A stretch of 62,197 nucleotides of DNA, the filler included, from Collodictyon triciliatum (Eukaryota), in the NCBI GenBank assembly GCA_043381765.1. It is 4 parts of 4 records of this genome, joined end to end, with 100 filler letters (N's around TTAATTAATTAA, not from the genome) between each part and the next. Parts side by side here need not be neighbours in the genome. Positions count along the whole stretch, not along the records: positions 18,301 to 31,792 come from JBHJMP010000544.1; 3 more parts are not named here. One strand, 5' to 3'. The notes under the pieces are model-generated. The model was not told the origin of the DNA and searched no databases. It was given only the letters and a program-made list of their open reading frames with translations. Positions 132-55,655 of this stretch are shown here, piece after piece. Numbering within the stretch: the first letter of the stretch is position 1; every line of letters starts with the position of its first letter. The position numbers and the translations under genes were made by a program.

Positions 132-18031
<17,900 letters not shown>

Positions 18032-18200: not shown

Positions 18201-18300
18201 NNNNNNNNNNNNNNNNNNNNNNNNNNNNNNNNNNNNNNNNNNNNTTAATTAATTAANNNNNNNNNNNNNNNNNNNNNNNNNNNNNNNNNNNNNNNNNNNN
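18201..18300. other. Artificial contig-joining spacer (44 N + TTAATTAATTAA + 44 N)
   Basis: The 12-mer at 18245-18256 places stops in all six frames; the same 100-bp design recurs twice more. Confidence 0.95.
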
Positions 18301-18319
18301 AAAAAAAAAAAAACAAAAA

Positions 18320-18430
18320 AAACAAACAAACAAACAAACAAACAAACAAACAAACAAACAAACAAACAAACAAACAAACAAACAAACAAACAAACAAACA
18401 AACAAACAAACAAACAAACAAACAAACAAA
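18320..18430. repeat. (AAAC)n microsatellite at contig edge
   Basis: Read directly. Confidence 0.95.
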
Positions 18431-18916
18431 AAACCTACTGAAAATTGAAAGAAAGAAAACAACAGACCAACGACGTTGTACGGCGCTTTAATCCCGAAAA
18501 TCATACGAAAGTGATTCAGATACTTCCGGACAAGCTTCCTGCGAGTCGATCTCATCTGCACTCGTTTTGACGCTCGTCTCTATTTTCCCAAAGATCCCTC
18601 TGAGTTACGGTTTCGTCGCCGCGTGTTTTCACTCTGGTTGCTCGTGTGGTCTTTGGTTTCCTTCCAGCGTGATTCAAATCCCACACCGAAAAGAAACATT
18701 ATATAAATAACAACAAAGATTACAATGATAAAAAAAAACCAAAAAAATCACAAAAAAATTCAACAAAAATGAATAAAACCAAAACAGACAACAAACTAAT
18801 GAAAAATAAAAAAATGAAAAGAAATACAGAAAGGAACAGCCTCTGCTCTGGTAGAGTATCTTTATGCGCGGCCTCATCACTGCTCCATCACAGCGCCAAA
18901 CAGCCCGCAACATCAC

Positions 18917-21900
18917 TCACTGAGACGCCCTCGCAACGGCAGCCAACTCGGGATTTCTATCCACGCCCCAGCCGTTCTCATAGCACTCGGCAATCTTCTC
19001 GCTGGCTGCAGGATACATGGGACTCTCCTCCGTGGTTCCGGACCAGCGGTTGTACTGACTCCGCTTTGCCTCGGCCATCTGCTTCAGGGCCAGAAACGCG
19101 TTCTGCGAGCCGCTCTTTGCAAGCTCCAGCAACCCTTGCATGTTTTCATTCAAGCGCAAGGAGTTTGCACGCCACTTATCCGCTGCACCCTCGTCCTTGC
19201 TCACACCCCACGCATTCTCGTAGCACTCAGCAATCAAGGCACTTGCGCCAGGGTACTTGAGTTTGGCTCCGGTTTTGTTTCCGTAGTAATCAAAGACATC
19301 CTCCTGTTCATCAACAAGTCCCTCCAGGATTTCCACAATGATAGGGCATCCGTTCTGTGCAAGTCGCTTCATCCCAGCGAGATTGTTTGCTCTACCGTAG
19401 TAATCGGCAGCCTTCCTGGCATCCTTCTCCGCGCCCCATCCGTTTTCAAGGCACTCGGCAACAAATTCCAAGGCGCCCGGATGCCTCAGCTCCTCTCCTA
19501 TCTTGTCTCCAAAGAGGCCGTGTCTCAGGATATCCTTCTTAGCTTCAGACATGGACACCAGAGCATCAAAAGCGCATCGCGTGCCTTTTTCGGCCAGACG
19601 TTTCAAGCCATCAAAGTCTGCAGCTCCTTTGTAGTATTCGGCAGCGTTGTTATAGCTCTTCTCCACACCCCAGCCGTTTTCGAAGCTCTGTGCCACAATC
19701 TTGACTGCTTGGGGGTGCTTAAAGCTGACGTCAATCACTTCCCCTCTAAACGTAACGTTCTCTTTCATGTCAGCCATGTCCTTGAGCGCTTGAAATGCAA
19801 CGACGGAGCCTTGGCTTGCTAGCTGCTTCAGGCCATCAAAGTCGCCCTCCAGTTGAAGAGACAGCGTTTTCCACTTGGATTCTTCCTCTGCGTTCTTTGC
19901 AACGCCCCATTCGTTCTCGTAGCACTCAATAATGATGGAAATGATTACCGGGTTCCTAAAGTTTCCATCCTCATCTTTCAATAAGCCCAGCTCCTCCAGA
20001 GCAGCAAAAGCATCGGGAGACCCACTCCGCGCCAATCTCTTCAGTTCATCGACATACTCGATTGCTTTGAGCCATTCAGCAGCCTTTTCCAAGTCCTTTT
20101 CAACAGCCCAACCGTTCTCATAACATGAAGCGACGGCAACAGCCGCTGCTTGATGGCGCATCTTTTCTCCGACTTTCTCTCCAGAGTCTTCATACTTCAA
20201 AATGGGGTCCTTCAGTTCAGCCAAGTCAACCAGGACGCTGAAGCCATCTGCGATGCCTTGTCTTGCTAGTTCCTTCAAGCCTTCAAAGTCAAGGCACCGT
20301 CCAAACTTCCAGTATACAGCTTTTTTTGTATCTTTCGCAGTCCCCCATCCGTTCTCGAAACACTCAATAGCAGCTCTTGTTTGGAAGGCAGTGACACTCT
20401 GTCCGGTCTCGCAATAGTGAATAAAATCTTTGTCATAAGATGCTGCGCCAATCGAAAGCAGAATGGACTTTGACTGTGCATCAAGTTCCCCAGCATTGCG
20501 AAGCTGGATATCACCCCCTTCGAGCTTCCTCCGAGCAACCACTTGGACGAGTTTGTCCAAGACAACCTTTGCTTGTTTAAACAAGTTCATGATATCAGAG
20601 GAGCTGCAAAACCTGGCAATCACAACCTCTGGCTCCGTCTTTTTTACAAGGGCCTTTCCGTATGTCCATGTCAGCTCGCTGACTGGGATGTGATGCACCA
20701 TGGCTCCTGTGGAGATATCAAAGATTCCGAATACATTTTCTTTGCTTCTGGACCCCAGCCATTTCTCACCGTTGGGCCCGTTGATTACAAAGAGTAACTC
20801 CACCCATGAAGTGTGACCCTCAAACGAGTTCACCTTCTGTCCGCTGTGTATATCCCAAATTCGAATGTCATTATTTCCTAGCCCAGACGCAACCCAAGTC
20901 TCTCCATTTGGTCCCAACACGGTACAAGCGCTGAATATGGAGTAGTAGTTGTCCTCGAGCTTCTTTATCTTGGTACTGGTACCCAAGTCCCAGACAAGTA
21001 TTCCGCCATCGTATTGGCTCACCAACCATTTTTCGCCGCTGGGGCCCAGGCAAGGGAATATAGCAGTAGTGGAGCCGACATCAGAAGCAAGAATCTTCAC
21101 TTGACTTCCTGTTTTCAAATCCCAGATGCGGATGGTGTCATCCACGCTTCCAGACGCAAGCCATTTCTCGCCGTTCGGTCCATCCACGCCACAGGCACAG
21201 TTTGCTGCATAGGTGTGTCCCTTCAGGGTATGAATGTGATTCCCAGTATCAGCATCCCATATACGCACAGTCTTATCTCTACTGGCGGTCGCAATCAACT
21301 GCTGCCCATCAATTCCAACGAGATTGGATGAGCGACGAGTTATATCGGTATGGTAGTCATCAAACTTGAGAATGTTGTCCTGGTTCACATCCCACAAGCG
21401 AATGGTTTTGTCTCCACTGCCTGATGCCACCCACAGCTCGCCATTTGGTCCAGTGACAGTGCAGAGACTGTGCACGGGGCTTGAATGCCCTTCCAAGATC
21501 ATCAATTCGGTCCCTGATTTCAACTCGAGGACGACCACATCATCATCACAACCATGTACAAGCCTGATATCCCCGCCGGGTCCTGGGACAAAGCAGCATG
21601 ACCTAATGGATTTGCTCGACTGGACCACTGAGGTTTGTGCTCCTGAATCCAAGTCCCAAGTGCGAATAGTTTGGTCCTGACTAATTGACACTAATGAAAC
21701 GCATCCGCGGAATCCCACAAAATGACCCACTGCATACACGTAATCAGAATGTCCCTCCATTTCTCTAAGAAGAGATCCACTTTCCAGGTCCCACAGTCGC
21801 AAAAGCCCATTTCTGTATCCTGAGACCATCCATTTTTCTCCATCCGGGCCTTTTGCTTCACATATACAAGACGAAGCGCCTTTTTCAGCCTCCAATACTT

Positions 21901-24900
21901 TCACTTGACTCCCGGTACTCAAATCCCATATTCGAATGGTATTATCACCGCCCCCAGATACAAGCCACGGCTCCCCGTTCGGCCCACTAATCGCACTGAT
22001 ATATGCGATGCCATACGAATGACCTTCAAGTTGCCGTATTTGATTGCCTTGCACCGGTTCCCAAATTCGAATAACACTATCCTCACCACCCGATGCGACC
22101 CAACTCTCACCGTCAAGCCCAGTGATGCTACAGATTGCGGTGACCCAGCCAGTGTGTGCGGGGATGTGGCGGATAATACCTCCTGACGAGTAATCCCAAA
22201 TGATGACCGAGCTGTCCACACTTCCCGAGGCAAGCCATTTTTCGCCGTTTGGACCCTGCACGGGGCAAAGGACAGAAACGGTGTACTTGTGTCCCTCCAA
22301 ACACTTTCCGTAAGGGACCCCAAAGTTAACACCATCTAGGTTGGCCTCGTTGAATATGATGTTGCCAAAGAAAGCGTTCTTGAAATTAACTCCCTGCAAG
22401 TTCGCACCAGTGAAGTTTACGGAATCTAGGATGGAGTTACTTAGATTTGCGTGTGGAATCCTAACACCAGATAGATCAAGTCCACTGAATGATACGTTCA
22501 TAAAGTTGAGAAGGGTTGCAGCCTCCGAAGCTTGTTTTGATTGCAATTCGTCGTCCTTCGATGATAAGACTATCTTATGCAGACTAGATATGATTTCTCC
22601 TCGATTCCATCCATCTTTGACACTTTCATTTTTCAAGTTTCTATGAATAAAATCTTTGACACTAGTAAACTCGGCCGGTTCTTGATAGATACCAACTAGC
22701 TTGGAATGGGCAGAAAGACGCGCGCAACAGGCCAGTGTTTTGTTGTGGGTCCGCCCGAGTTTCTCTGAGCACAAGTCTCTCATAGCTCCCCAGAAATTCA
22801 TGCCGTCGCCATGGAGCGTATTCTGATGCAGGAATGAATCAAATTCACTATATTGAACCCATGAAACCAAAGAGTCGTATGAGGAGCCTTCGGCCTGAGC
22901 AGCCAGAGAGTCGTTGATAAATTGGGTGATAGCTTCAGAGTCATGTATTTCGTGAAGTAATTTGGCGATCTTGAGCACGACGCCGAAATCACTTATTGAA
23001 CTTGGTGTTTTGGTTGCCTTTCTTATAGAAGCGGCTTGCTTCAAAGATTCGATGGCTTTGTCATTTCTAAAATGAGAGAAGGCAAAAATATAGTATGCTT
23101 TAAGATTGAAACTGACCAGTACATAAAAAAGTGAGAATATGAAAGAATAAAATTATTAAACGTGCATTTTTCTAAAAAAAAAAAAAAAAAAATATTAGCT
23201 AATCAGCATTCAAAGTAATTGGCTAAGCGTTGAATAAAAGCAATTATAATATGTTTTGGAAAATTAAAGAAAACGCACTCTTGTAATTCAATCGAAACGA
23301 GAGCGATTCTCTCCAAAAGTGCAGCACAGGCCGGGGTCTCACATCCAGAAATAGTTCTTTGGACCTCTAGAGCATTGTTGTATGTATCCAGGGATACCAG
23401 ATAGCTGAGGATGTTAAAGTGAGTATGAAATTATCGCAAGATTGATCATTTTGATGTAGTGTGAATTCATACACCATATATCTTTTAAAACTCTGATTGT
23501 ATTGTACAAAGAGGGAGAGAAAAAGGAAAGGAAAGGAAAAGAAGAAAAGTACAAACTCTTTCACTAGTAAACCGATATCACCAATGAGCTCATTTATGGC
23601 AGATATCATCGTGTGGGCCTCATTCAGAATCTTATTCAATGCAACCTTCGCAACCGTAAACATTTTTGTGGACTCTTTAAACCTAGTACATTAAATCAAA
23701 TTTAACAAGGTTGTGTTTTCTTCTTCTGGCATACGTGGACTGAAAAAAAAAAGGCTTCATGCCACAAGGAGACTCCAGCGAGAATAAAATATGCCTTCCA
23801 TCAGCAAGGTAAGCATGTCCTAGATTAATAGGGATAACAAAATCGGGGGCACTGCTGATCCCATGGAAATCTCGCAGTGGAAGCCACTCAGAGGTGTCGC
23901 TACTCATCCCATCTCCATCGGCTCTTGTTTCCTTAGATGTAATGATTCATCGTCAACTTTACTTTTCCCTGTATTTGTCTTTGTAAAAAAAAAAAAATCT
24001 TGATTTTTATGTTAATTCATTCATTTGGGACCTGACTTGCAAGAACTTTATGGACCAAATTCCGTATCCAATTTTTATATTAAAGTTGATTAGTCAGAGC
24101 ACGTTTTCAATTTCTTTTTCGAGTTAGCATGTACATAAAGCGTTGAAAGAGAGAAGGGACTCGTCAAAGTATTAATGTTTACATTCTTTGCTTCGAGCAG
24201 AGAATTTCACAATAGGTCCCATTCGGTTCTCGTTAGAAGCCTGATATTTTGTTTGTTTGTTTTTTATATTTATTTCACTAGAGAAAAAATCTTATGAACT
24301 CAATTGAAATGATATAGAACCGAATGAATACTGTAGGTTAGTGGAAATGAATCAGAATAGTTGGTCCATACTAATCACCTTCGCTTTTGCGACTCGAAGA
24401 CCGATAAGGGTCCAAAGGAAGGGCTCAATCAATTCTAGTGTTTTTTTTTTTAATAGGAGGGGAGAATTTAGATTATTTTTAAATTTTGTTTTCTTCTTAT
24501 TTGGTTCAAAGTGCAACAGAGTTAAGCCATGCGAGTGGTGAGATTGGTGCATATGGTGGAGATTATTTTTACACCGTATCATCTTCTATTTATCAGGAAC
24601 CGGCTCTATAAGGGAAAAAAAACCCAAGTAATAACAGTATTAACCATTGAACGATGCTGCTTGAATGAATGACTGGGAGCCTTCACTCGCCACTTGAGAA
24701 TTGCTAAGTAGCCAGTGTCGAAGGATTTGTTGGTTCTCTTTCGCCTTGGTCTCCTCTGCGTTTAAGGGAACATCCCTGATGATTTGGTGTCAATCAGCTC
24801 AAAAGAAAGGTGTTCTCAAGAGCATCGGGTTGGAAAGAACTTAAATAAGAGAAATAAAAAATGGCACAATCAAAAACAGTATTCGTGCTACGATACCGTT

Positions 24901-25199
24901 AGCTGAATATATAATAACAATAAAAAAAAAGTATGTAATTGCAATAGTAATGGACTTCGCTAACCAAGAGGGACGTGAATGGCACGCCTCCAGCTTCTCT
25001 CCAGTGATACGGCGAATAAGGTGAGCCAAGAGGCAACCGTCCTTGGCGTCCTCGGTGATGTCTTCAGCCTTTAGCCCAGACCTTTCCAGGTTACAATTCA
25101 CCCAAGCCAAAAGAGCCTTAAAAATGACGGTCAAGAGAAAGTGAATATCCGTCGAGTTGGGTGGTTCCTTTTTTTTTTTTTTTTTTTTTTTTTGTCTTC

Positions 25200-25231
<32 letters not shown>

Positions 25232-25405
25232 CATTTTCCATTAGCGAAGTCCCCCAAGCATTAATGACAGGACAGCGCGGAGGATGAGCACATTACAAGA
25301 CTGATGATAAATACTGTGTATGTACAGTGTGTTGGACATGATATGTGTTATTTTTGCATGAGCAGAGCGTACCTCCTTTGCGTTGAGGGGTTCGATGTTG
25401 GCCAT
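18917..25405 (-). CDS. Multidomain repeat protein: calponin-homology (CH) domain, TPRs, pentapeptide repeats, at least 12 WD40 repeats and 7 Sel1-like repeats
   Basis: Exon 1 (25373-25405, MANIEPLNAKE) splices to ALLAWVNCNL...DAKDGCLLAHLI and ELIEPFLWTLIGL (CH). Small exons give TPR-like YNNALEVQRTISG...AALLERIALV...DKAIESLKQAASIR. The terminal exon 18917-23066 encodes FSGLDLSGVRIPHANLS (pentapeptide), GH...WLASGSxDxTIRIWD repeats and IAECYENGWGVxK repeats, ending in TGA. Exons between about 23780 and 24240 are less certain. Confidence 0.85.
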
Positions 25406-27002
25406 CGCGATGAGTCCTTTGCGTGTTCTTTGGTCCGCTCGACCTGTGCAAAACAACGTTCACTCGGGTTAGGCATTTGCGTTTGCCTTCTCCATAGACA
25501 GAACATGGTTTGACTTTGGCGGTTGAGTTGCTTCTTCTGTTCTTGTTTGTGGTTCTGGTGGCAGGCGTTTGCTTTCGACTGGGCGCTGAAAGAGTTGCGC
25601 GGGATGCGTTTCGGAGCCGGTGTCAATCGGATGTGTAGACAAACGGGGGCGATTGATAGGAAAGCAGGAATGATTGGATGATGATATTTACAGATATATA
25701 TATGCGTGTGTGTCACCCGCGAAGTGCACGGCTTGGCCGTCTCTGATTGGCTGAATGTATTCCACATTTGAGAAAAACAATTGAATGGTTTGTCCTGAGA
25801 TTTGTTATTTATAGCCTAATTTAGGTATGAAGTCTTTTGTGGAAAAGGGTGTTGCGGGAATTGCAGGCCGCGGTATCTTTTCTACTTCGCAGGCAACCAC
25901 ACCAGCCCAGATGCCGCGCGCTTATGAAGAGAGGCACATTAAGTATATTAGCTGAAAGAAAGAAATGTATAAATAAATAATTCAGAGAGTAAGAAATAAA
26001 TAAATGAAGGGCCTTCTTTCTCATTATGCAGTTTGTCGAAAAAATAGTAAATTGGCATGAATAAGAAAAGAAAAGATCTAATGACGAGGCGACAAGGACT
26101 TTTCATCCTCTCATGTTCGTGACGATGTATTTTCGAGAGATGTTTGATGCAACACCTCATTTCTTGGCAAAAATAAAATGAATAAATAAATATAATGTGT
26201 TGTGCGGCGGTTGGCGAATGGGTGGAAATAGGTTATAAGGCCATCCGAGCAATAAAACAAGATTGCGATCAACACAATGGATATATAATACTCAATAATA
26301 TGTGACATATTATATATGTGTATCGCTTTTATCCGCAGAATGTCTCATTAAGCCAGTTATATCCGCGTATGGCTTCATTAATATAAATTCCAAAACTGCA
26401 CAAATTCCCTCTTTGATCAAAACGCCTGCGCAGATTCTTTCCATCGTCGTCTCTTTCATTTTGCCCACTGAGAAGCATCGACCGAAAACGCGACACAAAC
26501 ACACCGAAACCAATCGTCCTGCGTGCTGCATTATTGTCACGTGTTATGGTTGAGGTGGCGATCGAAGATACAAGTCCAAGAAAATCACCGCCAGAGTTTG
26601 GGTTCAACCAGTCTTCTCTTCAACACCTTTCTTTTCCTTTTCCTTTTCCTTTTCTTTCTTTTTCTTTTTTTTTCTTCTTTCTTTAAATGTCCTTTTGATT
26701 TTGTTAAGAGAAAGATCAGGCCAGCGAGAAGCACTTTGTTTTTCCTTTTTTTTTTTTTTTTGAGATAAGCTAGCAAAATTCAAGAAACTTCTACACAATC
26801 TTCTTTATGACGACAATATTTCTCCTGCGCCTGTTTCACAATATGCACACTTTCAACGCTTTTTCCCCCCCTTTATTCGATTCAAAGACACTTTCAACGC
26901 ATAAGCAGGAAAAATCTCGAGCAGGGTTTGCCCCGGGTTACAAGGCTCGATTTCGCGTCCCCACCAACTTTCTCTTCCTAGCAAAGTCTGTATTCTTGAA
27001 GA

Positions 27003-27457
27003 ATGAAGCGATTCGCACCATTCGCGATCGTGTGCGCCGCACTTGCTTTGATTCACAGCACAGCGGCTTTTTACTTGCCCGGCGTTGCGCCGATCGACTA
27101 TCCGGACGGAGCCAAAGTGGAGCTCAAGGTCAACAAACTCACCTCTGTCAAAACGCAGCTGCCGTATGACTTTTACAGTCTGCCTTTCTGCCGTCCGAAG
27201 GAAATCATCGACACAGCCGAAAATCTTGGCGAAGTCTTAACTGGAGACCGCATCGAAAACTCAAAATATGAGGTCATTAGCTTATTATGTGCTCTTGTGG
27301 ATTGTTTATGGTCCCCTTAATTCTCCTGATTCCGTCTCATGGTTATGATATTGTCAAATACTCATACTCAGCTTTTTGTATTTTTCTTAAAATGGTCTTA
27401 TTTCATTCAAAGTATATCTATGGGGTCATCCACCGGCCTTCCACCTTTATTCATTTT

Positions 27458-27488
<31 letters not shown>

Positions 27489-30400
27489 TTAAGTTTTCTC
27501 CATCTTCTTCCTATCTTGATTTAGATTTTCATGAAAGTCGAGGAAAATTGTCGAGTATTGTGCACACGTATATATGACAAGACAGAGGCCAAACATTTCT
27601 CAAAGATGATTGCTGAAGAGTACCGAGTCAACTGGTATAAACCGTGGATACATTTACTATTGCAGACCATCATAATCGCTAACCAGCTTCCTTTGAACTG
27701 CAAATAATGCTATCAAATATAATATGTAAACGTAAAAATGCTCGCGAGGCGGCCTCTACATTTTCTGAAATTAGCAAAAAAATGAAGAAAAATCTCAGTG
27801 ATAAAGAAGAGGCTCACCAGGAAATAGCACACCCCTCATAAACGCTTTTAACTGTAGGATATTGGATAACCTGCCGGCTGCAACATCGCACGTCGTAGTC
27901 CCTGATGACCCATCAGAAGCCAAGACAGTCTATGAAATGGGAGTTCCTCTTGGAACGAAGCACACAGCTGGGTCTGGAAAGGTAATCTTCCAAACGCACA
28001 ATGTTTTTGCGCATCTCAACGGTGTGATATATACTTCCGACTCTGATATCCCTGAACTCACTTTATCTTTGTACATGTACAACAAAACAGAATGCATATA
28101 TGTGACTAATTGCACTACTTGCACCTGTCATTAGCTTTTGTATTAATCACCCTTATTATTTCCTTTTATTCCTCACCTCCCTGGTTAAGCTCTCTCATTC
28201 GTTTCACTTTCTCAACAACCATGCAACTTTCTACATCAAATACCACTCGGATGAATCTGCCAGCACACCAGGCTCTCGTGTCGTGGGCTTTCGTGTTCAG
28301 CCCAAGAGTATCAAACACAACATGGATCAAAATTCCATACGGCCAGACACATGCAGCATGCCAACTGCTCCAATGCAGTCCATCGACGGACCTACCGAAG
28401 TTATCTGGACTTATGATGTGAAATGGCAGGTTTGTATCCAAAAAGATACATGGTTCAATACACTAATGCATATTAAGATAAGTGTTCACTCATTGAAACA
28501 TGCCGATTATTGCAAATGGTATCAATTTGACTTTGCCTCATACCACTGACAGGAGCAACCCCTTTTTTCTTTTCTTTTGCTTTTGCTTTTTTACGTAGCC
28601 ATCCGATATCAAATGGGCATACCGCTGGGATGTGTATCTTCTAATGACCGACAGCCACATCCACTGGTTCTCCATTGTCAACTCTCTCATCATAGTTCTC
28701 TTCTTGAGCGGAATGGTTGCTATGATTATGATGCGGACGATTCACCAAGTGTGTGGATCACTGAACACGATTAATATACTACAATTCAATTCAATTCTCA
28801 ATTACTCATTTATTTTCAAAGAATAATTTTTCAGTCAACTGGACCAATATTCTCTAAATGGATACAAAATAAACGAGAGGAAAATGCAAGAAGCGAACTA
28901 ACGAATCGGTTCATGCAGGACTTTCTTCGCTACAATAAAGCAGAAACGTCGGACGAGGCCAACGAAGAATATGGATGGAAACTTGTTCACGGAGACGTAT
29001 TTCGGCCTCCAAAACACACACTCCTTTTGTCAGCGAGCGTTGGGTTCGGTGTTCAGCTCATTTGCATGACGTTTGCTTCTATGGGTAAGATCAGGAATAC
29101 AGACACCCTTTTTTTTTTTGTTTTAAGTCATGGCTGCCATTTTATTATGCTGCTATATCATATGTTTGTATATCAATATTTTTTAAAATAGTCTCTTTTA
29201 GATTCACATTCACTCACTTTAAAAGTAACATAGCTCACCAACATCCATAAGTTTATTTTTATATCGTAGACCACCCACGCGGACTAACCAATATTCTCCC
29301 TCCCTTTCCCCTATCCTTTCATACTTATCTGTAGTTTTTGCTGTCCTGGGATTTCTGTCACCGGCAAACCGTGGTGGACTACTCACTGCCGTAATCCTGA
29401 TGTTCGTCTTCATGGGGTATTGTTTCCATCACTCCCAGCTTTCCCAACCTTCAGACTGCTCACATCCACGCAAACACGAACATATACCAAAAGGCGAAAA
29501 AGAAAAAGAAATTAAAAAACAAGAAATTTAAAAAACAAGAAATATTTAAAAAACAAAATATTAAAAAAAACAAGAAATATTTAAAAAACAAGAAATATTT
29601 AAAAAACTAGAAATATTAAAAAACAAGAAATATTAAAAAAACAAGAAATATTAAAAAAACAAGAAATATTAAAAAAACAAGAAATATTAAAAAAACAAGA
29701 AATATTAAAAAAAAAAGAAATATTAAAAAAAAAAAAAATAAAAAAAAAACAAANNNNNNNNNNNNNNNNNNNNNNNNNNNNNNNNNNNNNNNNNNNNNNN
29801 NNNNNNNNNNNNNNNNNNNNNNNNNNNNNNNNNNNNNNNNNNNNNNNNNNNNNAATAAAAAAGAAATAAAAAAGAAATAAAAAAGAAATAAAAAAGAAAT
29901 AAAAAAGAAATAAAAAAGAAATAAAAAAGAAATAAAAAGAAATAAAAAGAAATAAAAAAGAAATAAAAAAGAAATAAAAAAGAAATAAAAAAGAAATAAA
30001 AAAGAAATAAAAAGAAATAAAAAAGAAAAACCTCACAAAAAACCGTAGCGTATTTGCTGGGTATGCATCTGCACGAAACTACAAGATGTTCAAGGGCCCT
30101 GGATGGAAGCGCTGCGTGGTGCTGACCGCTATGTTGTATCCCGGCATCATCTTTGCCATCTTCTTTGTGCTCAACTTTTTCATCTGGGGCGCAAAGTCCT
30201 CGGGGGCCATCCCATTCACAACGCTGCTTGCGCTGCTTGCACTGTGGTTTGGAATCTCTGTGCCGCTCGTATGCATCGGCAGCTATCTGGGCTTTAAGAA
30301 GGAAGCCGTGGAGAATCCCATCCGCACAAACCAAATCCCTCGCAGCATCCCGGACCAAGTCTGGTACATGCAGTTTGTCCCCTCCATCCTTCTTGGCGGC

Positions 30401-30974
30401 ATTCTTCCCTTCGGCGTCGTCTTTATCGAGCTTTACTTTATCCTCGCATCCATCTGGCAGAATCAGTTCTACTACGTCTTTGGCATCTTGTTTCTTGTTG
30501 TCTGCATCCTCATCATCGCTAGCGGGGAAATCGCAGTGGTGATGATATACTTCCAGCTCTGCCACGAGGTCCTTTCTTTTTTCTTTGATATTCATCCGTT
30601 TGCCTTCGCATATGTAGACATCATGTGAATCCTATATTGCGGTATCCCCTCTGTTACTGTGCTCTTTCCCCACTTTTTATTTATCTATTTATTTTAATAT
30701 TTTCTCGTTTCTCTTTGGGTGGACACCACCGCAGGACTATCACTGGTGGTGGAGGTCGTTCCTGACGTCCGGCGCATCGTCCATCTACATCTTCCTATAC
30801 TCGATTTTCTACTTTGCCACGCGCCTGCACATCCACTCCTTCGTCTCCGGACTCCTTTTCTTCAGCTACACCACAATCATGTGCATCATCTTTTTTGTGC
30901 TGACAGGGACCGTCGGTTACTTTGCGTCTCTGTGGTTTGTCCGCAAGATTTACTCATCCATCAAGGTTGATTAG
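27003..30974 (+). CDS. Transmembrane 9 superfamily (nonaspanin/EMP70) protein, TM9SF2/4-like, 9 exons
   Basis: Signal peptide, then FYLPGVAP, ENLGEVLTGDRIENS, DNLPAAT, IHWFSIVNS, GWKLVHGDVFRPP, LSPANRG, RTNQIPRSIP, GGILPFG, EDYHWWWRSF, and C-terminal IKVD followed by TAG. All introns GT-AG. Confidence 0.97.
29500..30028. repeat. A-rich minisatellites (about 18-mer AAAAAAACAAGAAATATT and 11-mer AAAAAAGAAAT) filling a TM9SF intron, with a gap
   Basis: Read directly. Confidence 0.9.
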
Positions 30975-31296
30975 GGCGATGTAAGGAAATGAGATAGCTT
31001 TCCCTTTTTTTTTTTCTTCTCAAGATGAAAATAAAAATAAAATACGTGAGCAGATAGAGAAAACGGAACGCTAACCAAATCATCTGATGTTCTCCTGTGC
31101 GTCTGCACAATATTGTTTGTTTGTTTGTTTGTTTGTTAGTTTTTGTGTGAAGACTTCCAAAGAACGATCTCTTCTATACCCCACAATGTGAATAAATGTG
31201 GTGATCACACCGACAGAGACAGAGTTGAAAGAAGAATAAAAGAAAAACACAATAATTAAGAAAAAGTCTGCTTTGCTGAGAAACAATAAGCACTCA

Positions 31297-31300
<4 letters not shown>

Positions 31301-31350
<50 letters not shown>
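31301..31350. repeat. (GA)n microsatellite
   Basis: Read directly. Confidence 0.97.
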
Positions 31351-31354
<4 letters not shown>

Positions 31355-31698
31355 AAAAGCAGATTCTCCAGAAAATAATATTATTAAACTTGGGTTCCTT
31401 CCTTCTTCTCTCAACCCACCATATTCTGAAGCCGAAAAAAAGAAAAAACACGCAAGCGATCGGAAAGAGCGATCCCGAGAAGGAAGAGACCGGCGCCACA
31501 GCCCTGCCCCATGGAATGCCTACTGACCGTTCGCAAACCGTGAAGGCCGACGCAGCCGACCCAGAGAGCGAAAAGGTCACTTGACCACATCCCTTACAAC
31601 ACAGGTTATGCACCGAGACACACCGACGATCAAGACGCCAGCTGCCACCGACTCGTGAGTACAACAAACTACTAATAAGACGGAGCGAGCTCTTTGAA

Positions 31699-31792
<94 letters not shown>
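31699..31792. repeat. (AAT)n microsatellite at contig end
   Basis: Read directly. Confidence 0.97.
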
Positions 31793-31892
31793 NNNNNNNN
31801 NNNNNNNNNNNNNNNNNNNNNNNNNNNNNNNNNNNNTTAATTAATTAANNNNNNNNNNNNNNNNNNNNNNNNNNNNNNNNNNNNNNNNNNNN
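31793..31892. other. Artificial contig-joining spacer
   Basis: 44 N + TTAATTAATTAA (31837-31848) + 44 N. Confidence 0.95.
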
Positions 31893-32482: not shown

Positions 32483-34546
32483 CTAGTACACCTCCACAGA
32501 ATTTGAATCCGAGCACTGGACAACTATGAGGTTACCTCTAGAATCAAACTTTGCAGCGCAAGCTCGGTATACATCAATAATACGACGAAGCTTTCCCGTT
32601 GGCAGATATAACATGATTTGGCCTTGGACGCTGTCCGTTATCATCAGAGTGCCTTCGGGTCCGTAAGATATACAAGATGAGCCCTGAATTTTTTCCACCT
32701 GAAAACTGCGAATAAGCGTACCAATTTTTGAATCAAAGACCTGGACAGTGCTCGTTTTAAAGGAAACAAACAGCTCCCCGCTATCATTCACCAAAAGCCC
32801 CTCGGGAGGGCCATCAAATTTGAAGGTTTGTGTCTGTACAATCTTCATCAGCAACTTTCCATCTGTGGCATATTTGTGTATCGCTCGACCATCAGGGCTT
32901 GAGACATAAAGATTGTCATATTCATCAAAAGTTGCACGCCCAAGATTCACTCTTCTTGTATCAAAGGCGACCGTCTTTGTGATTTCGGGGAATGCACCGC
33001 CGTTTTGCTCAACAAACTCAATTCGGCCCTGGGCAGAGTTTAGAAGCACAAGGACCCTGCCACTGTTTGATATTGCGATGTCCATGAAACCGGACGCAAC
33101 TGAATGTACACCGTATTTAACGGAATCGATGTATTTCAGATCTGATGAGAAACGACGAACAACAGAATTTGCTGACTCACAAATATAGATATCGCCCGTG
33201 ATTGGGTGAACTGCTATGCCACGTGGGTCCATAAACTGCATTGGGCCGTGTCCATAGCTGCCAAACCGCAACTTTCGTGACTGGAGTGAATTGATGGGAC
33301 GGTGGATGACTTGAAGAGGAAAATAAATCATCCTTTGGTGCGGTGGTGTTTTTGTGCGGATAGTTTCAGGTAATAAGCGGCGGAGTCTCTTCATTCCTTC
33401 GATTTGGGGTTGAAATTTTTGAGATGCAGCAGATGAAAATCGCCTGTAGACTGAGGCAAGGGCTGGCGGACTTTGCGCATGAAGGCGCTTTAGAGACTTG
33501 AATAACTGAAAGGCGGATTGGAGTGAAAGAAGGGTGGTGCACACTTGAGTTTCGTAGGATGATTGAAACTTGCGGTCAGCAGAAGAATGTTCGAGGAGCT
33601 ATCAAAAAAAATTATTTAGCAAGCTGATGGTTGAGCGGAAATGATATATTATGTAAGGTTGTATAGGTAAAAATAAGCCAGTCCTTCATGAATGGTTCCG
33701 TAATTATTTCTTTTTGTAATTTATAAACAGACCATGAATTATAATGAAGGATGGCATATTATTCCAGGTAACATGGAATAAGTTTTTCGCGAGGGGGTTG
33801 TACCTGTGCGTGCGCTGCTTTTTGATAATCACCAATTACTTCGATTGATGATGCGAAAGAAGAGGCTATCTGTTGGTCGAGGTCTTCAAAATATTCAGCG
33901 ATCTTTGCAGGAGGTTTTGATGAATTAGAGCTCACCTTCATTTGGTTTTATTTTTTTTCCTTTTTTTGCTTTTTTTGCTTTTTTTTGCTTTTTTTCTTTT
34001 TTGCTTTTTCTTTTTTTGCTTTTTTGCTTTTTTGCTTTTTCTTTTTCTTTTTTCTTTTTCTTTTTTCTTTTTCTTTTTTCTTTTTCTTTTTTCTTTTTCT
34101 TTTTTCTTTTTNNNNNNNNNNNNNNNNNNNNNNNNNNNNNNNNNNNNNNNNNNNNNNNNNNNNNNNNNNNNNNNNNNNNNNNNNNNNNNNNNNNNNNNNN
34201 NNNNNNNNNNNTTTTTTTTCTTTTTTTTCTTTTTTTCTTTTTTTCTTTTTTGGTTTTTTTTGTTTGTTTTTTGTTTGTTTTTTGTTTGGATAGAGGCCAT
34301 AGCCCTATTCCGAGACAAATGAGTTTATGCTCGTGGGGAAGATATGTTTCGTTAGGGTGCAATACTGCGATCCTACTCAAGTCACCTGATCAGCCCTTTC
34401 ATCCAAGGCTTCTGCACGGCTGATTGTGTGACTGAGGCGATCCTTGGCCCTTGTTTTGGGTGCCCTTGGTTCCTCTGCTGTGGCTTTACGTCGCCAGAAA
34501 ATATTATGCGTCCCGGCTCTGTCAAACTCTGTGATCTCGTCCCTTT
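32483..34546 (-). CDS. Coiled-coil plus NHL-repeat beta-propeller protein (TRIM-NHL-like); N-terminal RING appears disrupted, so possibly a pseudogene
   Basis: Exon 32483-33598 has FGSYGHGPMQFMDPRGIAVHPITGDIYICESANSVV and further NHL-like repeats. Helical upstream exons 33804-33903 and 34386-34546 join in phase through GT-AG introns. No intact start was found. Confidence 0.75.
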
Positions 34547-44921: not shown

Positions 44922-46196
44922 TTAGTGGGCCAGGGCAAAGGCAACGGCAACGGTAGGGGCGGCGGCCGAGTTCTTGACGTTGGCCTTTGCGCCGATCGAG
45001 AGGGTGACCTTGTCGTGGACCTTGGCAACAACGACGGCGTCGATCTGGCCGGCCTGGGTGGCCTTGAGGCGGAGTTCGCTGTCATAGGCGGCAAACTTGG
45101 TGGCTGTGCCGACAGTGAAGGTCTTGTCCTGGGAGGAAGTGTTGAAGGCAAACTCGCCACCGATCACGGTCTTGTTGTTCACCAGCTTCTCAATGTTGTG
45201 GTAGTAGTTGACGCCAAAGACAGAGAACGCCTTGGTGCTGTGAAGAAAATACGAGCACGTTAATCACGAGGCTAGAGATTGCCACGGGGTAAAAACACTA
45301 TTTTCCAGGGAGGGAAGATGAATCTGGGTTGGAAACAAAAGGAATGCAGCATATTTTCCAGAGAAGGAAGGAGATTAATCTGGTTGGAGACAAGAGGAAT
45401 ACAGTATATTTTCTAGAGAAGGGAGATGAATCAGATCGGACACTCACGCGGTGGCATTGACAACCACGTCGCCAGCGGCATAGCCGAGGACGGCGTCCGG
45501 AGTGGAAGCCTTGGCCTTGTTGACGTCGTAGGAGAGATCGAGGCCAGCAGAGACGCCGTTTGAGGCCACAACGACGGAGGAGGCGACGAGCTTCTTGACG
45601 AGATCGACCGAGGTCTTTGCGGCGACGAGGCCGTGGGCGTAGCTGTAGGTGGCCTTGGCCGAGTCGAGAGCCTGGGCCTTGAAGACGGCCTCGAGCTGCA
45701 GCTTGCCGGCGGCAATCGGCTCGCCCTCGTACGTGGCGTCGATCTTGGTCTTGTGGCTGTCGGTCTCGTGCTTGGCCTTGTAGGCCACGCCTCGCACAGA
45801 CTGCTTCGCCTCCACGTCGCCCTTGAGGCTGCCGTCGGCCTTGCGCACAAGCGTGGCTGTCACGGCCGGGCCCAGCGTCGAGGTCTTGACTTCCACCTTG
45901 GCGTCCTCCGTGTACTTCTCGGTCAGCAGGTCTGTGTGCAGGTTGCTTGGTGAGGCTGCTGCGCAAGTGCTCTTGTGTTTTGTTTTTGTATTTTGTTTTG
46001 TTGTGTTTTTTGTTGTTTGTTTTTTGTTTTTTGTTGTTTGTTTTTTGTTTTTTGTTTTTTGTTTTTTGTTTTTTGTTTTTTGTTTTTTGTTTTTTGTTTT
46101 TTGTTTTTTGTTTTTTGTTTTTTTGTTCGCTATTTATTAGTGCTTACCCTTGGACTTCTTGCCGAGGTCGCTGTATTGTGTGGGCTTGGCGGACAT
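44922..46196 (-). CDS. VDAC: Mitochondrial outer-membrane porin (VDAC), 3 exons
   Basis: Exon 1 MSAKPTQYSDLGKKSK joins DLLTEKY, the VDAC N-terminal helix motif PxYxDLGKxxxDL. Amphipathic beta strands follow, ending KVTLSIGA...TVAVAFALAH and TAA. Introns at about 46147-45933 and 45447-45239 are GT-AG. Confidence 0.9.
45975..46126. repeat. (TTTTTTG)n repeat in VDAC intron 1
   Basis: Read directly. Confidence 0.93.
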
Positions 46197-46866: not shown

Positions 46867-49162
46867 TTACAAGATGGAAGCTACCACAGAGTTTCCTATT
46901 CGTTAGTTAGGATTCATTCGTGAGTATCATGTTGGTGGAAAAGAACATACCCAGAAAAAGAAAAAAAGGGTGTGATGATGACACAGCGATGAATAAGGTT
47001 CAGCAAAGACTTACCCGGAGTGCCTGCGCGTATGGATTGTGCAGTTTCCATCATCTTCTGTGCTTTTTGAGGGAACTGTGTCTGCTCGTAGCATTCAGCC
47101 ATTAGAACATATCCTGCAGTGGAGTTTGGATTCATGTCCACAACACGCTCCAAGTCCGATATGGCTGCTGCATAATCCCCGACCTGCGATGCGGAGTTGG
47201 TGACTCAAGTGTGGAATTTTGTGATAGACAGAATGAAATATAGGAAGGTAAAGTTTATATAATCAGAGTCAAGAGCTTCGCTGGGCTCATGAATACAAAC
47301 AAGGATTACCTGTCTTAGGACCATAGCTCGGTACAGTAGTGCGCCTGTATTTTTTGATTCCATATTCAGTGCGTTTGTAAATGAATCATGAGCTTTGGCT
47401 AAGTCTCCAGTCTCCATGGCACGAATTCCTGAAACCATTTGTTCTTCTATGTTGCGGGCCAGCTTTCATTGTTGTAATGGTTCAGAGAAGCTGGTTAGGT
47501 GGTGTGTCCGTGATATATGGGCATTATATGATTTCTATTCCGGTTTCTTATTCTCGTTTTATAGACCTGGGTACATTTATGAAAAAGGATATAAAATACA
47601 CCTCTAGTTCAGGTTTGAACCGTTTGTCAGACTCAGGTGATATTTTGAAAAGCTCCCGATAATACTCTGCCTGTAAATTGAACGAATGGATTGTAAGTAT
47701 AACTCGTACTTTGGGACGGTGAAAAAGAATCGCCTCATCAGGGAGAGTGGGCGTGTATAAATCACATGAATACATACAGGAAGAGCACGGCCACTTGTTA
47801 CAGAGTCCAACATAACATTAATCTTGGCCTGGACAGCAATGTCCCCGACAGAACTGGAATTTTTCATTTCTAGTAATGCATAGATCCATTATATGTATTG
47901 AAGGGGGCTCCTCAAATAATGTAAACAGAGCTGTTGATAAAAAAAAATATAGAGAGAGCTAAAAGTTGTGGAACATAGTCTAATCATAGGACAAGAAAAG
48001 AGCACCAGAAAACTTTTGGTTCTTTTTCACATGCGCGGTTATCAAGGCCCATGGGACTGGATCCTCTCGTGGAGGGGCGCCGGCAGCTGGCTCTCCCTCT
48101 TCATTCAGTGTCTGCTCGATATTGAACGTCGTGATACTTGTGTTCTGAGCCATGGCGTCGCTAATCTGTTGCGCACCCTATTCACATGAATATGAATAAG
48201 ATTAATGAGAAAAATACTTAGATATGTAAAAAGGTTACGTTCACATCCATTGAAACATCCAGGAGAATGAAAAGAAAAAAAACAGTCCATTACGGCAACG
48301 ATAATACAACATTTCCTCACCTTATCACCAATCCGGTTGTTATTGAGGTTCACCTCTACCAACACGTCGTTAGTTGTCTAGGTAATCAATTATATAGTTA
48401 GCTACACCCTCAGTGTCTTTGACACCTAAAAACTCGAACATACTTTTATGAAAGAGAAAAAAAGATAATATTCCACAGACACGGCCCTATAATTGCGCAT
48501 GCATGCATGCATTAGAGGAATAAAATGTCGAAAAAATAATGAAAAAAAAAAAAAGGATGGTATGAATGCAGCTATTTGTCGACTTGAGCCCATCAATTCA
48601 CAAGGATCATCGCCCAACTCACCAACACCTCCGCAATGACGGGGCAAACACGATTCCCAAGAAAGTTGTCTGCGAGATTCACAGCAGCGAGAGAGCGATT
48701 CTTGAGGAGGGCACGAAACACGGCAAGGCCGCCTTCAGAGCCGGCGTTGTTTCCAGCCAGAGACAGAGTGCGCAGAACACGGCAGTCGGCGAGACACGCA
48801 GCCAAGTGGGAGACGCCTTCATCGCCAAGGCCGCTGTGGGCGAGATTGAGGTAGACCAGGCCTTTGTTGAAGGGCAGCACAGAGCCCAGCAGACGCCCGC
48901 CTTCAGCCCCGACGCCACTGACTCGCAGATCCAGCTGGGCAAGCCCTTTGTTCATGCGCAGCGTCTCGGCAAGCTTCTTGAGATCCTCGGCCTGCAGCTG
49001 CGTGTTCCATAGGAGAAGATGCTTCAGCTGTGTGTTCCGCTTCAGGGCTTTGCAGAGCTTGGCGAAGTCTCCCGGCTCGATCTCGCATTTCCAAAGAGAC
49101 AGCGTGGACAGTGTCGGATCGTTGTCGAGGAGGCGTTGCAGGTTGACCGGGTTCAGCGGCAT
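46867..49162 (-). CDS. Ribonuclease-inhibitor-like LRR protein with C-terminal TPRs, 8 exons
   Basis: 28-residue LRRs (ALKRNTQLKHLLL; LVYLNLAHSGLGDEG; LRTLSLAGNNAGSEG; LVEVNLNNNRIGDKGA), then TPRs (AHDSFTNALNMESKNTGALLYRAMV; GDYAAAISDLERVVDMNP). Traced through GT-AG introns to ...VVASIL and TAA. Confidence 0.85.
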
Positions 49163-49662
49163 TTCGTGTGGTGGCTCCTGGCTTGCTTCTTCCTGCTTGT
49201 GTTTGTCTTTGAGTCTGTGCTCGCTGGATCGATTTGGAGCCCTTTTTTGATAGAATCCGATTGGGATCTTGATTTGTGATCGGTTGTCTTGGTTTGCGTG
49301 ACCAAATGTGGATCTGTAACGGCTACCAACTGAATTTTAATTGTGGAATTTAAAATATAAGTCAATTAAAAGTATATAATATGGGTAATTTGTATACAAG
49401 AGAATTTACGAATACAAATTTGTGGTAAATGATACAATTAGTGTAACAGTGTATTGATTCACACCTGGCTCGCCACATTTGCTTCATTGTGGCGAGCAAC
49501 AGCACCACACGCAGTCTTCTCGTTGTTGTGTTTCTGCTCCATAAAGCCTTCATTCAAGCGCCCGGAGCATCGCAGCGAATGAGTGAGGTATATCACAGCG
49601 CTTGAGCCTGTGTCTCAAAGCGCCTTCATTGCACTCTCAGCCTGGAACTGTCTTGCAGAAGG

Positions 49663-53690: not shown

Positions 53691-54425
53691 ACTTGTTTGC
53701 TTTGGTATGGAAGATAACCTGCCTTCGTAATGTGGATTGCATCAGAGATTTTATTCCAATTATTTTATAAATTATAAAAAGTATGAAAGATTGAAAGCAG
53801 TGCGGCCGTCGTTTGTACTCAATAAACGTGGCAAGAAAAGAAAAAGAAAAAAACAGCCCCAAGTGCCTTGTTTGCCGAAGGTGACGGGCTAAAGCCAAGC
53901 GAAACGAAAGCACCACGTGCTGAGAGTCCCGGAATGATGCCATCATTGAGAAACAGAGGCTAGTGCGAGGAGACAGAAGCCTGATGCGCCCACCAGGTGC
54001 TAAGCCTATTCATTTGTATGTATTAATGTTTTATCCGCGCCACCCCAGACCGCGACTGACAAGAGAAAAGCGGCAGCCTTTCCTTTAGATGCAGAGCATA
54101 GGTGATTCCAGACCTTTACTTACGAATGCTACTATTTATGGAATATATTCAAAAGTGACGCACTTTATGTTCGTCATTTGACGTCAGAATCTAGAGAAGG
54201 CATCCAGCGAGGGGTACATAAGCCGTGCGGGCGACTTGCGTTTTTCACACATTCCACTAACCGGTTGGAAAGAATACGGACGCAATGCATCACAAGCCCA
54301 AAGACCACCGTAAGAGGCTGTTTGATTCTAGCCTTGCTTTAGATTAAGTAGGTTGTGCAATCATAAAACAGGTTCTCCATCATCCGAAGCATTTGCGCCC
54401 GTCTGTAGGAAAAGGCCGCCGCATC

Positions 54426-55655
54426 ATGTCACAACAACGGGCGGGTGAGAAAGGCTCTTCAAACAAGGCTACCACAAAGACACAGGTTGATTTGTCTCCA
54501 CTTGACGGACTACGAGGGATCTGCTCCGTGCTCATCGTGATTGGGCACTTCTCCACAATGTGGACCCCACCGATACATTCTGGAAAGCAGTTTCCTGCAT
54601 TCACTCCTGATTTCCTCTCTGGTGTTTCCCTTTTTTTCGTGATATCTGGATATACACTCGTTCATGTCTACGACCGCCATGCCCCAGGAAAACACAGCCC
54701 AGTGCCGCTTGAAACACCAGCAGAAAGAGGTTCATTCTTTCGAAAGCGCGTAGCTCGCCTTGCACCGCTGTATTATTTTGGTCTGTTAGTCGGACTCGGT
54801 CCTCTCCTCGTGTACAAGTCGATGGGCGCTATCGTATTCAATCTCTTTTTCAGTGTAATTGCCCTGCAATCAATAGTTCTGACAGCGAACGAGACGAACG
54901 GGCCTCTCTGGACTGTTAGTGCATTCGTCATGTGCTATTGGATTTTCCCTCGTTCTGTCCGTTGGTTCCGAAGCGAAGGATACACTACCCTGCGCAACTA
55001 CGCTATTCTATGCAATCTCTGCTTGGTAGGAATATTTCTTCTTTTCTACCACTTTATTCCTTTGAAGCTTTTGGTAGCGCACCTCTTCGGTCCGTTTCGT
55101 ATCTTTGTATTCCTCATCGGTGTCCTTGCGGGGTATATGTCCAAGCATCTCCAGGTTACACACTACAAAATGTTTAACTGTACAGTGATTTCTGAGGCAA
55201 TTACTTTGCTCCATGTTGCCATTATGGCCTATTCGCTCAGCATGGGCCTCACCAACCAAGGATTCCGTCAGTGGATGCGCTTTGGATTAATTGTGGAGTT
55301 TTTCATCCCAGTAGTCCAGGCCTACTGGATTATTGCGCTCACTGCCCCAGTCTGCGGTGGAATCACACGTCCGTTCCTATCCTCTCGTATACTAAAGTAC
55401 TTTGGTGATATTTCTTACTCCGTGTACTGTCTGCACTATCCCATCTTCAACTGGATTGCATGGGTTGTGGAGGGCAAAGGACTCACTCAAGAGGCGGTCC
55501 CACCGTACCAAAGACAGGAGACAGCCCGGCCAGGATTCTACTATTTTGAACCTGAAGCTCTTGCACCCGTGCTTTTGGTGATTCTGGTCATCTCGGCCAT
55601 CGCACATATAATCTTGGAAGCACCAGCTCGCGCCGCGATATCAAAAAAGGATTAG
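54426..55655 (+). CDS. Acyltransferase-3 (OafA/YrhL-like) integral membrane O-acyltransferase, intronless
   Basis: LDGLRGI...IGH, GVSLFFVISGY, FFRKRVARLAPLYY, NGPLWTVS, FGDISYSVYCLHYP and ILEAPAR are the family motifs. First in-frame ATG at 54426; TAG stop. Confidence 0.93.
   Translation: MSQQRAGEKGSSNKATTKTQVDLSPLDGLRGICSVLIVIGHFSTMWTPPIHSGKQFPAFTPDFLSGVSLFFVISGYTLVHVYDRHAPGKHSPVPLETPAERGSFFRKRVARLAPLYYFGLLVGLGPLLVYKSMGAIVFNLFFSVIALQSIVLTANETNGPLWTVSAFVMCYWIFPRSVRWFRSEGYTTLRNYAILCNLCLVGIFLLFYHFIPLKLLVAHLFGPFRIFVFLIGVLAGYMSKHLQVTHYKMFNCTVISEAITLLHVAIMAYSLSMGLTNQGFRQWMRFGLIVEFFIPVVQAYWIIALTAPVCGGITRPFLSSRILKYFGDISYSVYCLHYPIFNWIAWVVEGKGLTQEAVPPYQRQETARPGFYYFEPEALAPVLLVILVISAIAHIILEAPARAAISKKD

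Follow-up and report, generated by a model that had tools for sequence, protein, structure and literature searches.

The locus described here lies at positions 18917–25405 on the minus strand of a 62,197-nucleotide stretch of Collodictyon triciliatum DNA (GenBank assembly GCA_043381765.1; hereafter, the window), in which positions 18,301 to 31,792 come from record JBHJMP010000544.1. We lean toward the interpretation that this locus, as one transcript, encodes a derived member of a STAND/NLR-like family in which the effector and the switch were lost, leaving a sensor-only scaffold or decoy paralogue; the product probably acts as a scaffold or regulator that has only the sensor. The parent family has the domain order calponin-homology (CH)–DUF4062 (NIR)–NACHT–TPR–linker–pentapeptide–WD40–cap–Sel1 and, in the databases searched, was seen only in a flagellate of fresh water, Diphylleia rotans. 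With respect to the criteria for STAND/NLR proteins, the locus has the C-terminal repeat sensor, while a NACHT domain and an N-terminal effector were not found.

The sensor part is encoded by a 4.15-kb exon (the big exon) that spans 18917–23066. It is part of a stop-to-stop open reading frame (ORF) at 18917–23152 with 1,411 codons, all in one frame; coding begins at the acceptor at 23066 (ttttag followed by A AAT GAC) and ends at a TGA stop codon at 18917–18919. Reading of TGA as tryptophan was ruled out because the gene's own stop codon is TGA and its 1,411 codons contain none. In the residue numbering of the locus protein P0001, the big exon encodes a family-specific TPR-like helical linker (residues 30–215; 22508–23066), a pentapeptide-repeat beta-helix (residues 216–280; 22313–22507), 12 WD40 blades, many of which have a GPNGExW insert (residues 281–813; 20714–22312), a cap motif, GGDIQLRNAGELDAQSKSILLSIGA (residues 879–903; 20444–20518), and seven Sel1-like units of ~75 amino acids each (residues 919–1411; 18920–20398). 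In Pfam, the pentapeptide block in the N-terminal 262 amino acids matched PF00805 with an E value of 2.7e-14 (52.9 bits versus a gathering score of 20.2). The propeller region matched PF00400 with an E value of 1.2e-45 (152.4 bits versus 27) together with many other propeller families, and five stretches of the C-terminal part matched PF08238 (E value of 2e-20, 72.9 bits versus 30.7). The pentapeptide block closes with ANLDGVNFG and is 40 to 55% identical to 9 of the 10 relatives compared. Motif and alignment counts gave 12 WD40 blades with a spacing of ~45 amino acids, and ENGWG-type motifs gave seven Sel1 units. These data, together with the cap, bear out the order of pentapeptide block, at least 12 WD40 repeats, cap and seven Sel1-like repeats in the original prediction. 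The Sel1 units are only 24 to 50% identical to each other, which supports that the array is old; Tandem Repeats Finder reported no DNA-level tandem repeat in the big exon (0 rows).

The start of the big exon (its first 262 coded residues) was modeled with AlphaFold on a six-row alignment. The model had a predicted local distance difference test score (pLDDT) of 84.6 and a predicted template-modeling score of 0.79 and consists of 10 helices followed by the beta-helix. Using Foldseek, we found that this model matched kinesin light chain (KLC) TPR domains (best E value of 1.5e-4, with a low template-modeling score of 0.26) as well as pentapeptide proteins. Based on the 10-helix model and the matches to KLC TPRs, the linker is predicted to be a divergent continuation of the TPR_12 array. 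The single-sequence fold of residues 835–1411 was poor (pLDDT of 53.6) and usable only as "mostly helical," and the Sel1 part matched generic Sel1 clusters only in the ESM Atlas (0.76 to 0.78, below the level of a lead).

The 186-residue linker alone was used as the query in a full HMMER (phmmer) scan of 1.84 billion representatives. Four proteins were identified at an E value of ≤0.001, three of which cover the whole query and are ORFs from a D. rotans Trinity transcriptome (P0122 to P0124; E values of 2e-21 to 4e-13, 24 to 30% identity). The fourth, P0125, was discounted because only 33 residues match, within a long low-complexity repeat protein. Thus, with three real matches in 1.84 billion representatives, the locus does not belong to a known widespread family. 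By blastp, the linker matched all five D. rotans members that possess this part. None of 267 shorter-length candidate proteins scored against linker residues 30–200, and none of the metagenome contigs scanned contained the linker peptides.

P0123 (EukProt EP00002; 2,619 amino acids) is labeled a complete ORF by its source. A Pfam scan of its residues 1–1372 identified CH at 191–277 (E value of 4.4e-11), DUF4062 at 379–470 (8e-11) and six stretches of TPR_12 (1.3e-37); NACHT at 653–817 (2.2e-5) was below the gathering score but has the motif GIGKSS. The TPR_12 stretches are followed by the linker, the pentapeptide block, WD40 repeats, the cap, and one Sel1-like unit. P0127, a D. rotans protein of 2,401 amino acids, has the same domain order. 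P0122, P0124, and P0129, also from D. rotans, share the C-terminal parts; their start lies within the NACHT region or beyond it, and the transcripts may be truncated. The cap region (L.GG.I....LL..GA) is kept in all five D. rotans relatives that have this end (E values of 4e-14 to 2e-5) and is followed by an FDxDF..YCE motif and a Sel1 unit, which matches P0129 and P0127. We note that the C terminus of P0129 consists of the cap, one Sel1 unit (CYENGWGVEKD, near the repeat consensus of the locus), and a MIB/HERC2-type domain (PF06701, from a precomputed list), suggesting that the region after the cap is a variable slot in the family.

More distant relatives were found with other parts of the proteins. 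A word-based search with residues 30–290 gave 140 matches at an E value of ≤0.001 among 2,172 candidates, mostly pentapeptide proteins. P0117 (TIR and NACHT), P0102 (Euglena gracilis), and P0089 have GxxxxGK[ST] upstream of the same linker end, pentapeptide block, and WD40 array, in agreement with the earlier proposal that this module forms the C-terminal half of NACHT proteins. The DUF4062-NACHT-TPR core of P0123 (query residues 150–1000) gave 65 matches, including nephrocystin-3-like, TEP1-like, and bacterial proteins, and also matches the NPHP3_N and TPR_NPHP3 models. In a separate observation, the predicted protein P0002 (Logan contig) has two tandem linker-pentapeptide-WD40 modules at residues ~18 and ~795, which could be read-through of two adjacent genes or a real duplication.

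Using tblastn with six relatives against the whole window, we obtained matches at three places only, i.e., the big exon, exon 2, and exon 6, with 2 of the 33 high-scoring segment pairs located outside the big exon. The best piece of the big exon aligns to residues 1373–2165 of P0123 with 37% identity over 794 amino acids (E value of 3e-166), a further piece reaches residue 2611, and exons 5 to 7 align from approximately residue 1287 onward. The big exon and the D. rotans proteins share five regions, and all five are collinear. The locus retains a CH-like head, approximately three TPR units, the linker, the pentapeptide block, the 12 WD40 blades, and the cap; a counterpart of approximately residues 270–1286 of P0123, i.e., ~1,000 residues comprising DUF4062, NACHT, a helical domain, and the first TPRs, is missing. 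It had been proposed that CH and TPRs occupy the position of the ATPase, which is not the case, as in P0123 and P0127 CH precedes DUF4062-NACHT and the TPRs follow. Since the parent has CH on one side of the ATPase and TPR on the other, these results support an internal loss rather than a domain swap or a new fusion. An insertion of the core between a pre-existing CH and TPR would be less parsimonious because the DUF4062-NACHT-TPR core is widespread. Similarly, the proposed fusion to Sel1 repeats holds only in part: one Sel1 unit is already present in the family, and what is particular to the locus is the expansion to seven.

No tblastn match to residues 270–1286 of P0123 was detected anywhere in the 62-kb window. 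NACHT was absent from the Pfam matches on the big exon and the upstream ORF pieces, and DUF4062 was found neither in the Pfam scan of the upstream ORF pieces nor in tblastn searches of the window with P0123 and P0127. The Walker A motif GxxxxGK[ST] does not occur in any of the six frames of the 18- to 27-kb region, consistent with the reported lack of a P-loop upstream. The whole window contains three Walker A motifs, all in a dynein region at 9–12 kb; two are in a dynein-type AAA context, and the third (9662, minus strand) is in a frame with stops on both sides of the motif. No runs of N are present within 18917–25405. Based on the lack of a Walker A motif and of tblastn and Pfam matches, a cryptic NACHT domain upstream is excluded within the window. 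Moreover, there is no room for hidden exons upstream because an EMP70/TM9SF gene begins on the other strand at approximately 27000. This nonaspanin gene (27000–30625, plus strand) has several exons, one of which matches PF02990 with an E value of 1.7e-73; it is divergent from exon 1 of the studied gene, and the two start codons are ~1.6 kb apart.

The CH-like head is encoded by three small exons. Exon 1 (25373–25405) consists of the ATG and 10 codons (MANIEPLNAKE), exon 2 (24965–25116) encodes the N-terminal half of the CH domain, and exon 3 (24645–24775; acceptor cag followed by G at 24775) encodes the second part of the CH-like domain. The exon 1-exon 2 splice was seen in a metatranscriptome contig (run X4), in which 25115/25116 is joined to 25372/25373 with 256 bases skipped and GT..AG on the minus strand. 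In the PDB, exon 2 matched alpha-actinin-type CH1 domains (best E value of 2.9e-6), and by tblastn it matched residues 189–260 of P0123 (1.7e-4). Using the acceptor at 24775, the translation of exons 1 to 3 is open over 105 codons and aligns to the CH domain of P0123 (residues 189–269) with 38% identity over 82 amino acids, one gap, and 45.4 bits, compared to a maximum of 25.0 bits for shuffled sequences (n = 200). This alignment runs across the exon 2-exon 3 junction, and residues 127–198 of P0127 aligned as well. The CH domain of P0123 itself passes PF00307 with 43.4 bits (profile positions 8–90). Together with the matches of exon 2 to the PDB and to PF00307 (see below), this alignment supports that the small upstream exons encode a CH-like domain, as originally predicted. 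Scanning of metagenome contigs with a degenerate exon 2 pattern gave no match. We observed an additional acceptor at 24839 (24794–24839, minus strand) with a long pyrimidine tract and CTAAC ~60 bases upstream; its use could represent unproductive splicing of the CH exons. The idea that the stretch after this acceptor (QPDALENTFLLS) is the missing CH helix, split by a stop codon and frameshift or homopolymer errors, was dropped because exons 2 and 3, when joined via 24775, already align collinearly to P0123 with a single gap and the RNA contigs are free of indels on the exons covered.

Between the CH exons and the big exon are TPR-like exons. Exon 4 (23735–23819) is an uncertain TPR-like fragment that may instead use a GC donor at 23795 as its end and is in phase in exon models A, B, C, and E. 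Exon 5 (23553–23682) encodes a TPR_12-like unit, assigned by alignment extension, and contains an ATG at 23663 as a possible alternative start; alone, it is marginal (E value of 0.053 with a hidden Markov model [HMM]). A possible, uncertain micro-exon of 20 bases (23473–23492) contains an ATG at 23477 and would restore the frame between exons 5 and 6. Exon 6 (23279–23404) encodes a TPR_12 unit that lines up collinearly with the final TPR in the D. rotans relatives, has canonical GT-AG sites, and is in phase with the big exon; it matched residues 157–203 of P0122 by blastp (E value of 2.6e-6 in a small database), tblastn (0.002), and HMM (1e-4). Under models B and E, P0123, P0124, P0129, and P0127 can be aligned through exon 5 to ~75 to 120 residues upstream of the big exon. 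Pfam detected no TPR family on any of the seven small-exon ORF pieces, five of which had no match at all. Nevertheless, the match of exon 6 to the TPR_12 unit of P0122 and the KLC-TPR-like model of the big-exon start support the TPR-like units claimed for this region.

Four chains of exons with GT/GC-AG sites leave one open frame of 1,582 to 1,628 codons from the ATG at 25405 to the stop codon at 18917, and all exons may be part of one mRNA of ~1,590 to 1,630 codons. Because open chains are easily obtained by the choice of sites, we counted them as compatibility and not as proof. Exon 3 ends in a GT donor that is phase-compatible with four downstream acceptors. Codon-usage scores for the upstream ORF pieces had no discriminating power. 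The region at 23820–24644 is a putative intron of 825 bases, or an intergenic spacer, and is the site at which the ~1,000 residues are absent relative to P0123.

Contigs of four RNA runs (X1 to X4, from three studies), two of which are lake or freshwater metatranscriptomes, cover parts of 18845–22496 at ≥99% identity and lie gap-free on the exons covered. The loose ends in the other two runs are presumably SMART template-switch oligo. Relative to contigs of other strains, we counted 16 single-base differences, of which 11 are synonymous and 5 non-synonymous; the synonymous fraction exceeds the random expectation of 22% (P = 8e-5) as well as the expectation of 34% for transitions only (P = 0.004). 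The contig coverage and the excess of synonymous differences show that the big exon is expressed and under purifying selection.

Several observations weigh against one transcript with a CH-like head that arose by internal loss. In a tree of 10 rows, five of the seven inner branches had <80% support, and the locus protein could not be placed among its paralogues; consequently, the preference for loss over a core that was never gained is based on parsimony. Exon 2 alone scored just below the gathering score of PF00307 (24.8 bits versus 26; E value of 2.5e-5) and covers profile positions 6–50 of 109. The final helix of the P0123 CH domain, beyond residue 269, has no counterpart at the locus. The frame-keeping acceptor at 24775 has a weak pyrimidine tract; the acceptor at 24839 looks stronger, yet its use adds 64 bases and an in-frame TGA at codon 77, giving an ORF of 76 codons. 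Exon 4 alone had no significant similarity (HMM E value of 30). Joining exon 5 directly to exon 6 (model D) breaks the frame, and an open frame requires either the 20-base micro-exon (models B and E) or a longer exon 5 with 26 odd hydrophobic residues. Finally, none of the contigs of the four runs lies on 22497–24969, so that RNA does not connect the CH exons with the big exon; this fits a low depth and is evidence neither for nor against the link.

The lack of RNA bridging 22497–24969 is also what would be expected if, after the internal loss, the locus had become two genes, i.e., a CH-only gene of exons 1 to 3 (105 to 106 codons, ending, if the exon 3 donor is not spliced, at a TAA immediately behind that donor) and a TPR-pentapeptide-WD40-Sel1 gene starting at the ATG at 23663 or 23477. 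Both ATGs are in frame, 825 bases separate the two parts, and P0122 of D. rotans begins with a methionine at the TPR array and has neither CH nor NACHT. However, the P0122 transcript may lack its 5' end, both complete relatives (P0123 and P0127) carry CH and the sensor tail in one polypeptide, and the GT donor of exon 3 is in phase with four downstream acceptors; we therefore consider a split into two genes rather unlikely. It is less probable still that the CH and TPR mini-exons are a decaying 5' relic, transcribed and non-functional as a 5' untranslated region or by unproductive splicing, with the protein starting downstream, no later than the first ATG in the big exon (P0001 residue 117). 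The premature stop produced by the acceptor at 24839, the phase conflict between exons 5 and 6, and the absence of Pfam TPR families from the small ORF pieces are in agreement with such decay, but exons 1 to 3 can be read without a stop and align collinearly to P0123 with only one gap, canonical sites put exon 6 in phase, and the big exon has 87 open codons ahead of its first ATG that are conserved with P0123. The assembly is a draft, and the window has 14 runs of N and many microsatellites, which raises the question of whether DUF4062-NACHT exons were collapsed or dropped between 23820 and 24644. We consider such an artifact very improbable, as the locus has no N runs, the RNA contigs are gap-free on the exons covered, and a loss of ~3 kb of coding sequence that leaves phase-compatible exons would be atypical of a collapse.

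A different question is whether immunity is involved at all. The whole family, including the locus, could be cytoskeletal or ciliary scaffolds of the NPHP3/kinesin light chain kind, in which case the loss of the ATPase removed only a regulatory switch; this possibility overlaps with the interpretation that we prefer. It is in line with the NPHP3_N and TPR_NPHP3 matches of the P0123 core, the names of relatives (nephrocystin-3 and TEP1), the resemblance of the linker model to KLC TPRs, and the actin-binding-type CH head. By contrast, DUF4062 is described, in the parts consulted of a preprint, as an NADase effector of bacterial defense that is found on NLR-like proteins (bioRxiv 10.64898/2026.09.04.749371). 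On balance, we regard a purely non-immune family as possible, if unlikely.

For the interpretation that we prefer, a derived and sensor-only STAND/NLR-like protein, the available parts of two preprints provide the context. DUF4062 was renamed NIR and described as a TIR-like NADase that is the effector in bacterial Avs and other defense systems (bioRxiv 10.64898/2026.09.04.749371; bioRxiv 10.64898/2026.05.01.722283). NLR-like STAND proteins headed by this domain were reported in 2026 to be widespread in eukaryotes; the domain sits N-terminally on many of the eukaryotic NLR-like proteins, e.g., TEP1, NWD1/2, and TTC41, and the functions of eukaryotic NWD1/2, TEP1, and TTC41 were called largely unknown (bioRxiv 10.64898/2026.09.04.749371). 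The full-length Diphylleia proteins would then be ligand-gated NADase switches with a very long sensor. Having neither nucleotide switch nor NADase, the locus protein would not signal by ligand-triggered oligomerization and would be a constitutive sensor-only scaffold. Its WD40 and enlarged Sel1 solenoid surfaces may bind a ligand or partner, and the CH-like head may place the protein on actin. The outcome could be a decoy or competitor that tunes the full-length paralogues or an adaptor outside an immune-type circuit. That the protein is a cytoskeleton-tethered detector of engulfed bacteria, as had been suggested, is speculation.

Going one step further, the protein could be an actin-sited partner, e.g., at the feeding groove or phagosomes, of full-length CH-NIR-NACHT proteins, with the WD40 and Sel1 parts capturing prey or microbe ligands and titrating them from, or presenting them to, NADase-armed paralogues; we advance this tentatively and think that it is more probably wrong than right. 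We take diphylleid flagellates to belong to CRuMs, a deep-branching protist lineage. If such a partner exists, there would be a decoy/adaptor layer of NLR regulation in deep-branching protists that is independent of the truncated NLRs of plants and animals. More generally, if the single transcript is correct, truncated-NLR regulators can emerge outside plants and animals, and the locus would provide a clean test of the sensor part alone with respect to ligand binding, localization, and antagonism, since it is a natural derivative that has both ends, is devoid of the enzyme and the switch, and is still expressed in lakes and conserved. Should the model of a single transcript fail, the locus would represent ordinary gene decay or gene fission.

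The seven-part parent architecture, CH-NIR-NACHT-TPR-pentapeptide-WD40-Sel1, is a more unusual find than the locus itself. In our literature search, we found no description of this architecture, and, judged by titles and the beginnings of abstracts, no protein that joins NACHT with a CH domain. The literature on the combination of NACHT, pentapeptide repeats, and WD40, as far as the parts consulted go, concerns cyanobacterial metacaspases and prokaryotic conflict systems (PMC7159879).

The window as a whole is eukaryotic and has introns of the GT-AG type, microsatellites, and the 14 N runs mentioned above. Dynein heavy chain exons are present at 9026–12140 (minus strand; Dynein_AAA_lid, E value of 1.3e-18), with Walker A motifs GEPGTGKT at 10291 and GPDGIGKT at 12140. 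A eukaryotic porin of the VDAC type (PF01459, 1.7e-16) at 45447–46133 (minus strand) lies inside the only GC-rich block of the window, at 44–46 kb, with a GC content of 0.55 compared to ~0.38 elsewhere in the window. An uninterrupted ORF of 435 codons at 54348–55652 (plus strand; Acyl_transf_3, 2.5e-26) encodes an intron-less membrane acyltransferase among intron-rich neighbors. Two ORFs are unrelated to the studied gene, one encoding RNI-type leucine-rich repeats at 48596–49336 (minus strand; LRR_6, 2.2e-6) and one encoding an NHL/SGL beta-propeller at 32486–33598 (minus strand; 3.7e-6). Three pairs of 44-base N runs spaced by 12 bases occur at 18201–18300, 31793–31892, and 56321–56420, adjoining (CAAA)n-type microsatellites, and look like masking or scaffolding and not biology; the other gaps are 100 or 453 N.

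Among known proteins, the closest to the locus are P0123 and P0127 of D. rotans, which share with it the CH-like head, the last TPR_12 units, the linker, the pentapeptide block, WD40 repeats with GPNGExW, the cap, FDxDF-YCE, and Sel1, all collinear; P0127 is less similar to the locus protein than P0123 (21 to 40% identity, depending on the region). They differ from the locus in that DUF4062, NACHT with the Walker A motif GIGKSS, and approximately five more TPR units are present between CH and the linker and in having one Sel1 unit. P0102, P0089, and P0117 share the linker end (SK...A..A...LN...VSFSG.DLSG), a pentapeptide block ending in FG, and the WD40 array; unlike the locus, they have the ATPase, and they do not match the TPR-like linker, cap, or Sel1 parts of the Diphylleia family. 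TEP1, NWD1, NWD2, TTC41, and NPHP3 share the DUF4062-NACHT-TPR/WD40 core with the parent family, whereas the locus has neither DUF4062 nor NACHT; for these proteins, the parts consulted of the source make no mention of a CH head, pentapeptide block, cap, or Sel1 tail (bioRxiv 10.64898/2026.09.04.749371).

For the two ends of the proposed function, there are more distant parallels. By sequence, exon 2 resembles the type 1 CH domains of alpha-actinin and spectrin (PDB 5nl7 and 6oa6), aligning to the first half of CH1 with E values of 2.9e-6 to 1e-4; instead of their CH1-CH2 tandem, the locus has a single CH, the last helix of which is unrecognizable. NRG1C of Arabidopsis, a truncated plant NLR, is described in the parts consulted of a preprint as antagonizing its full-length neighbors (bioRxiv 10.1101/2021.01.27.428547). 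By analogy, the locus protein, also a member that lacks canonical domains, could oppose its full-length relatives; the two differ in NLR class and kingdom, and at the locus, it is the ATPase itself that is missing.

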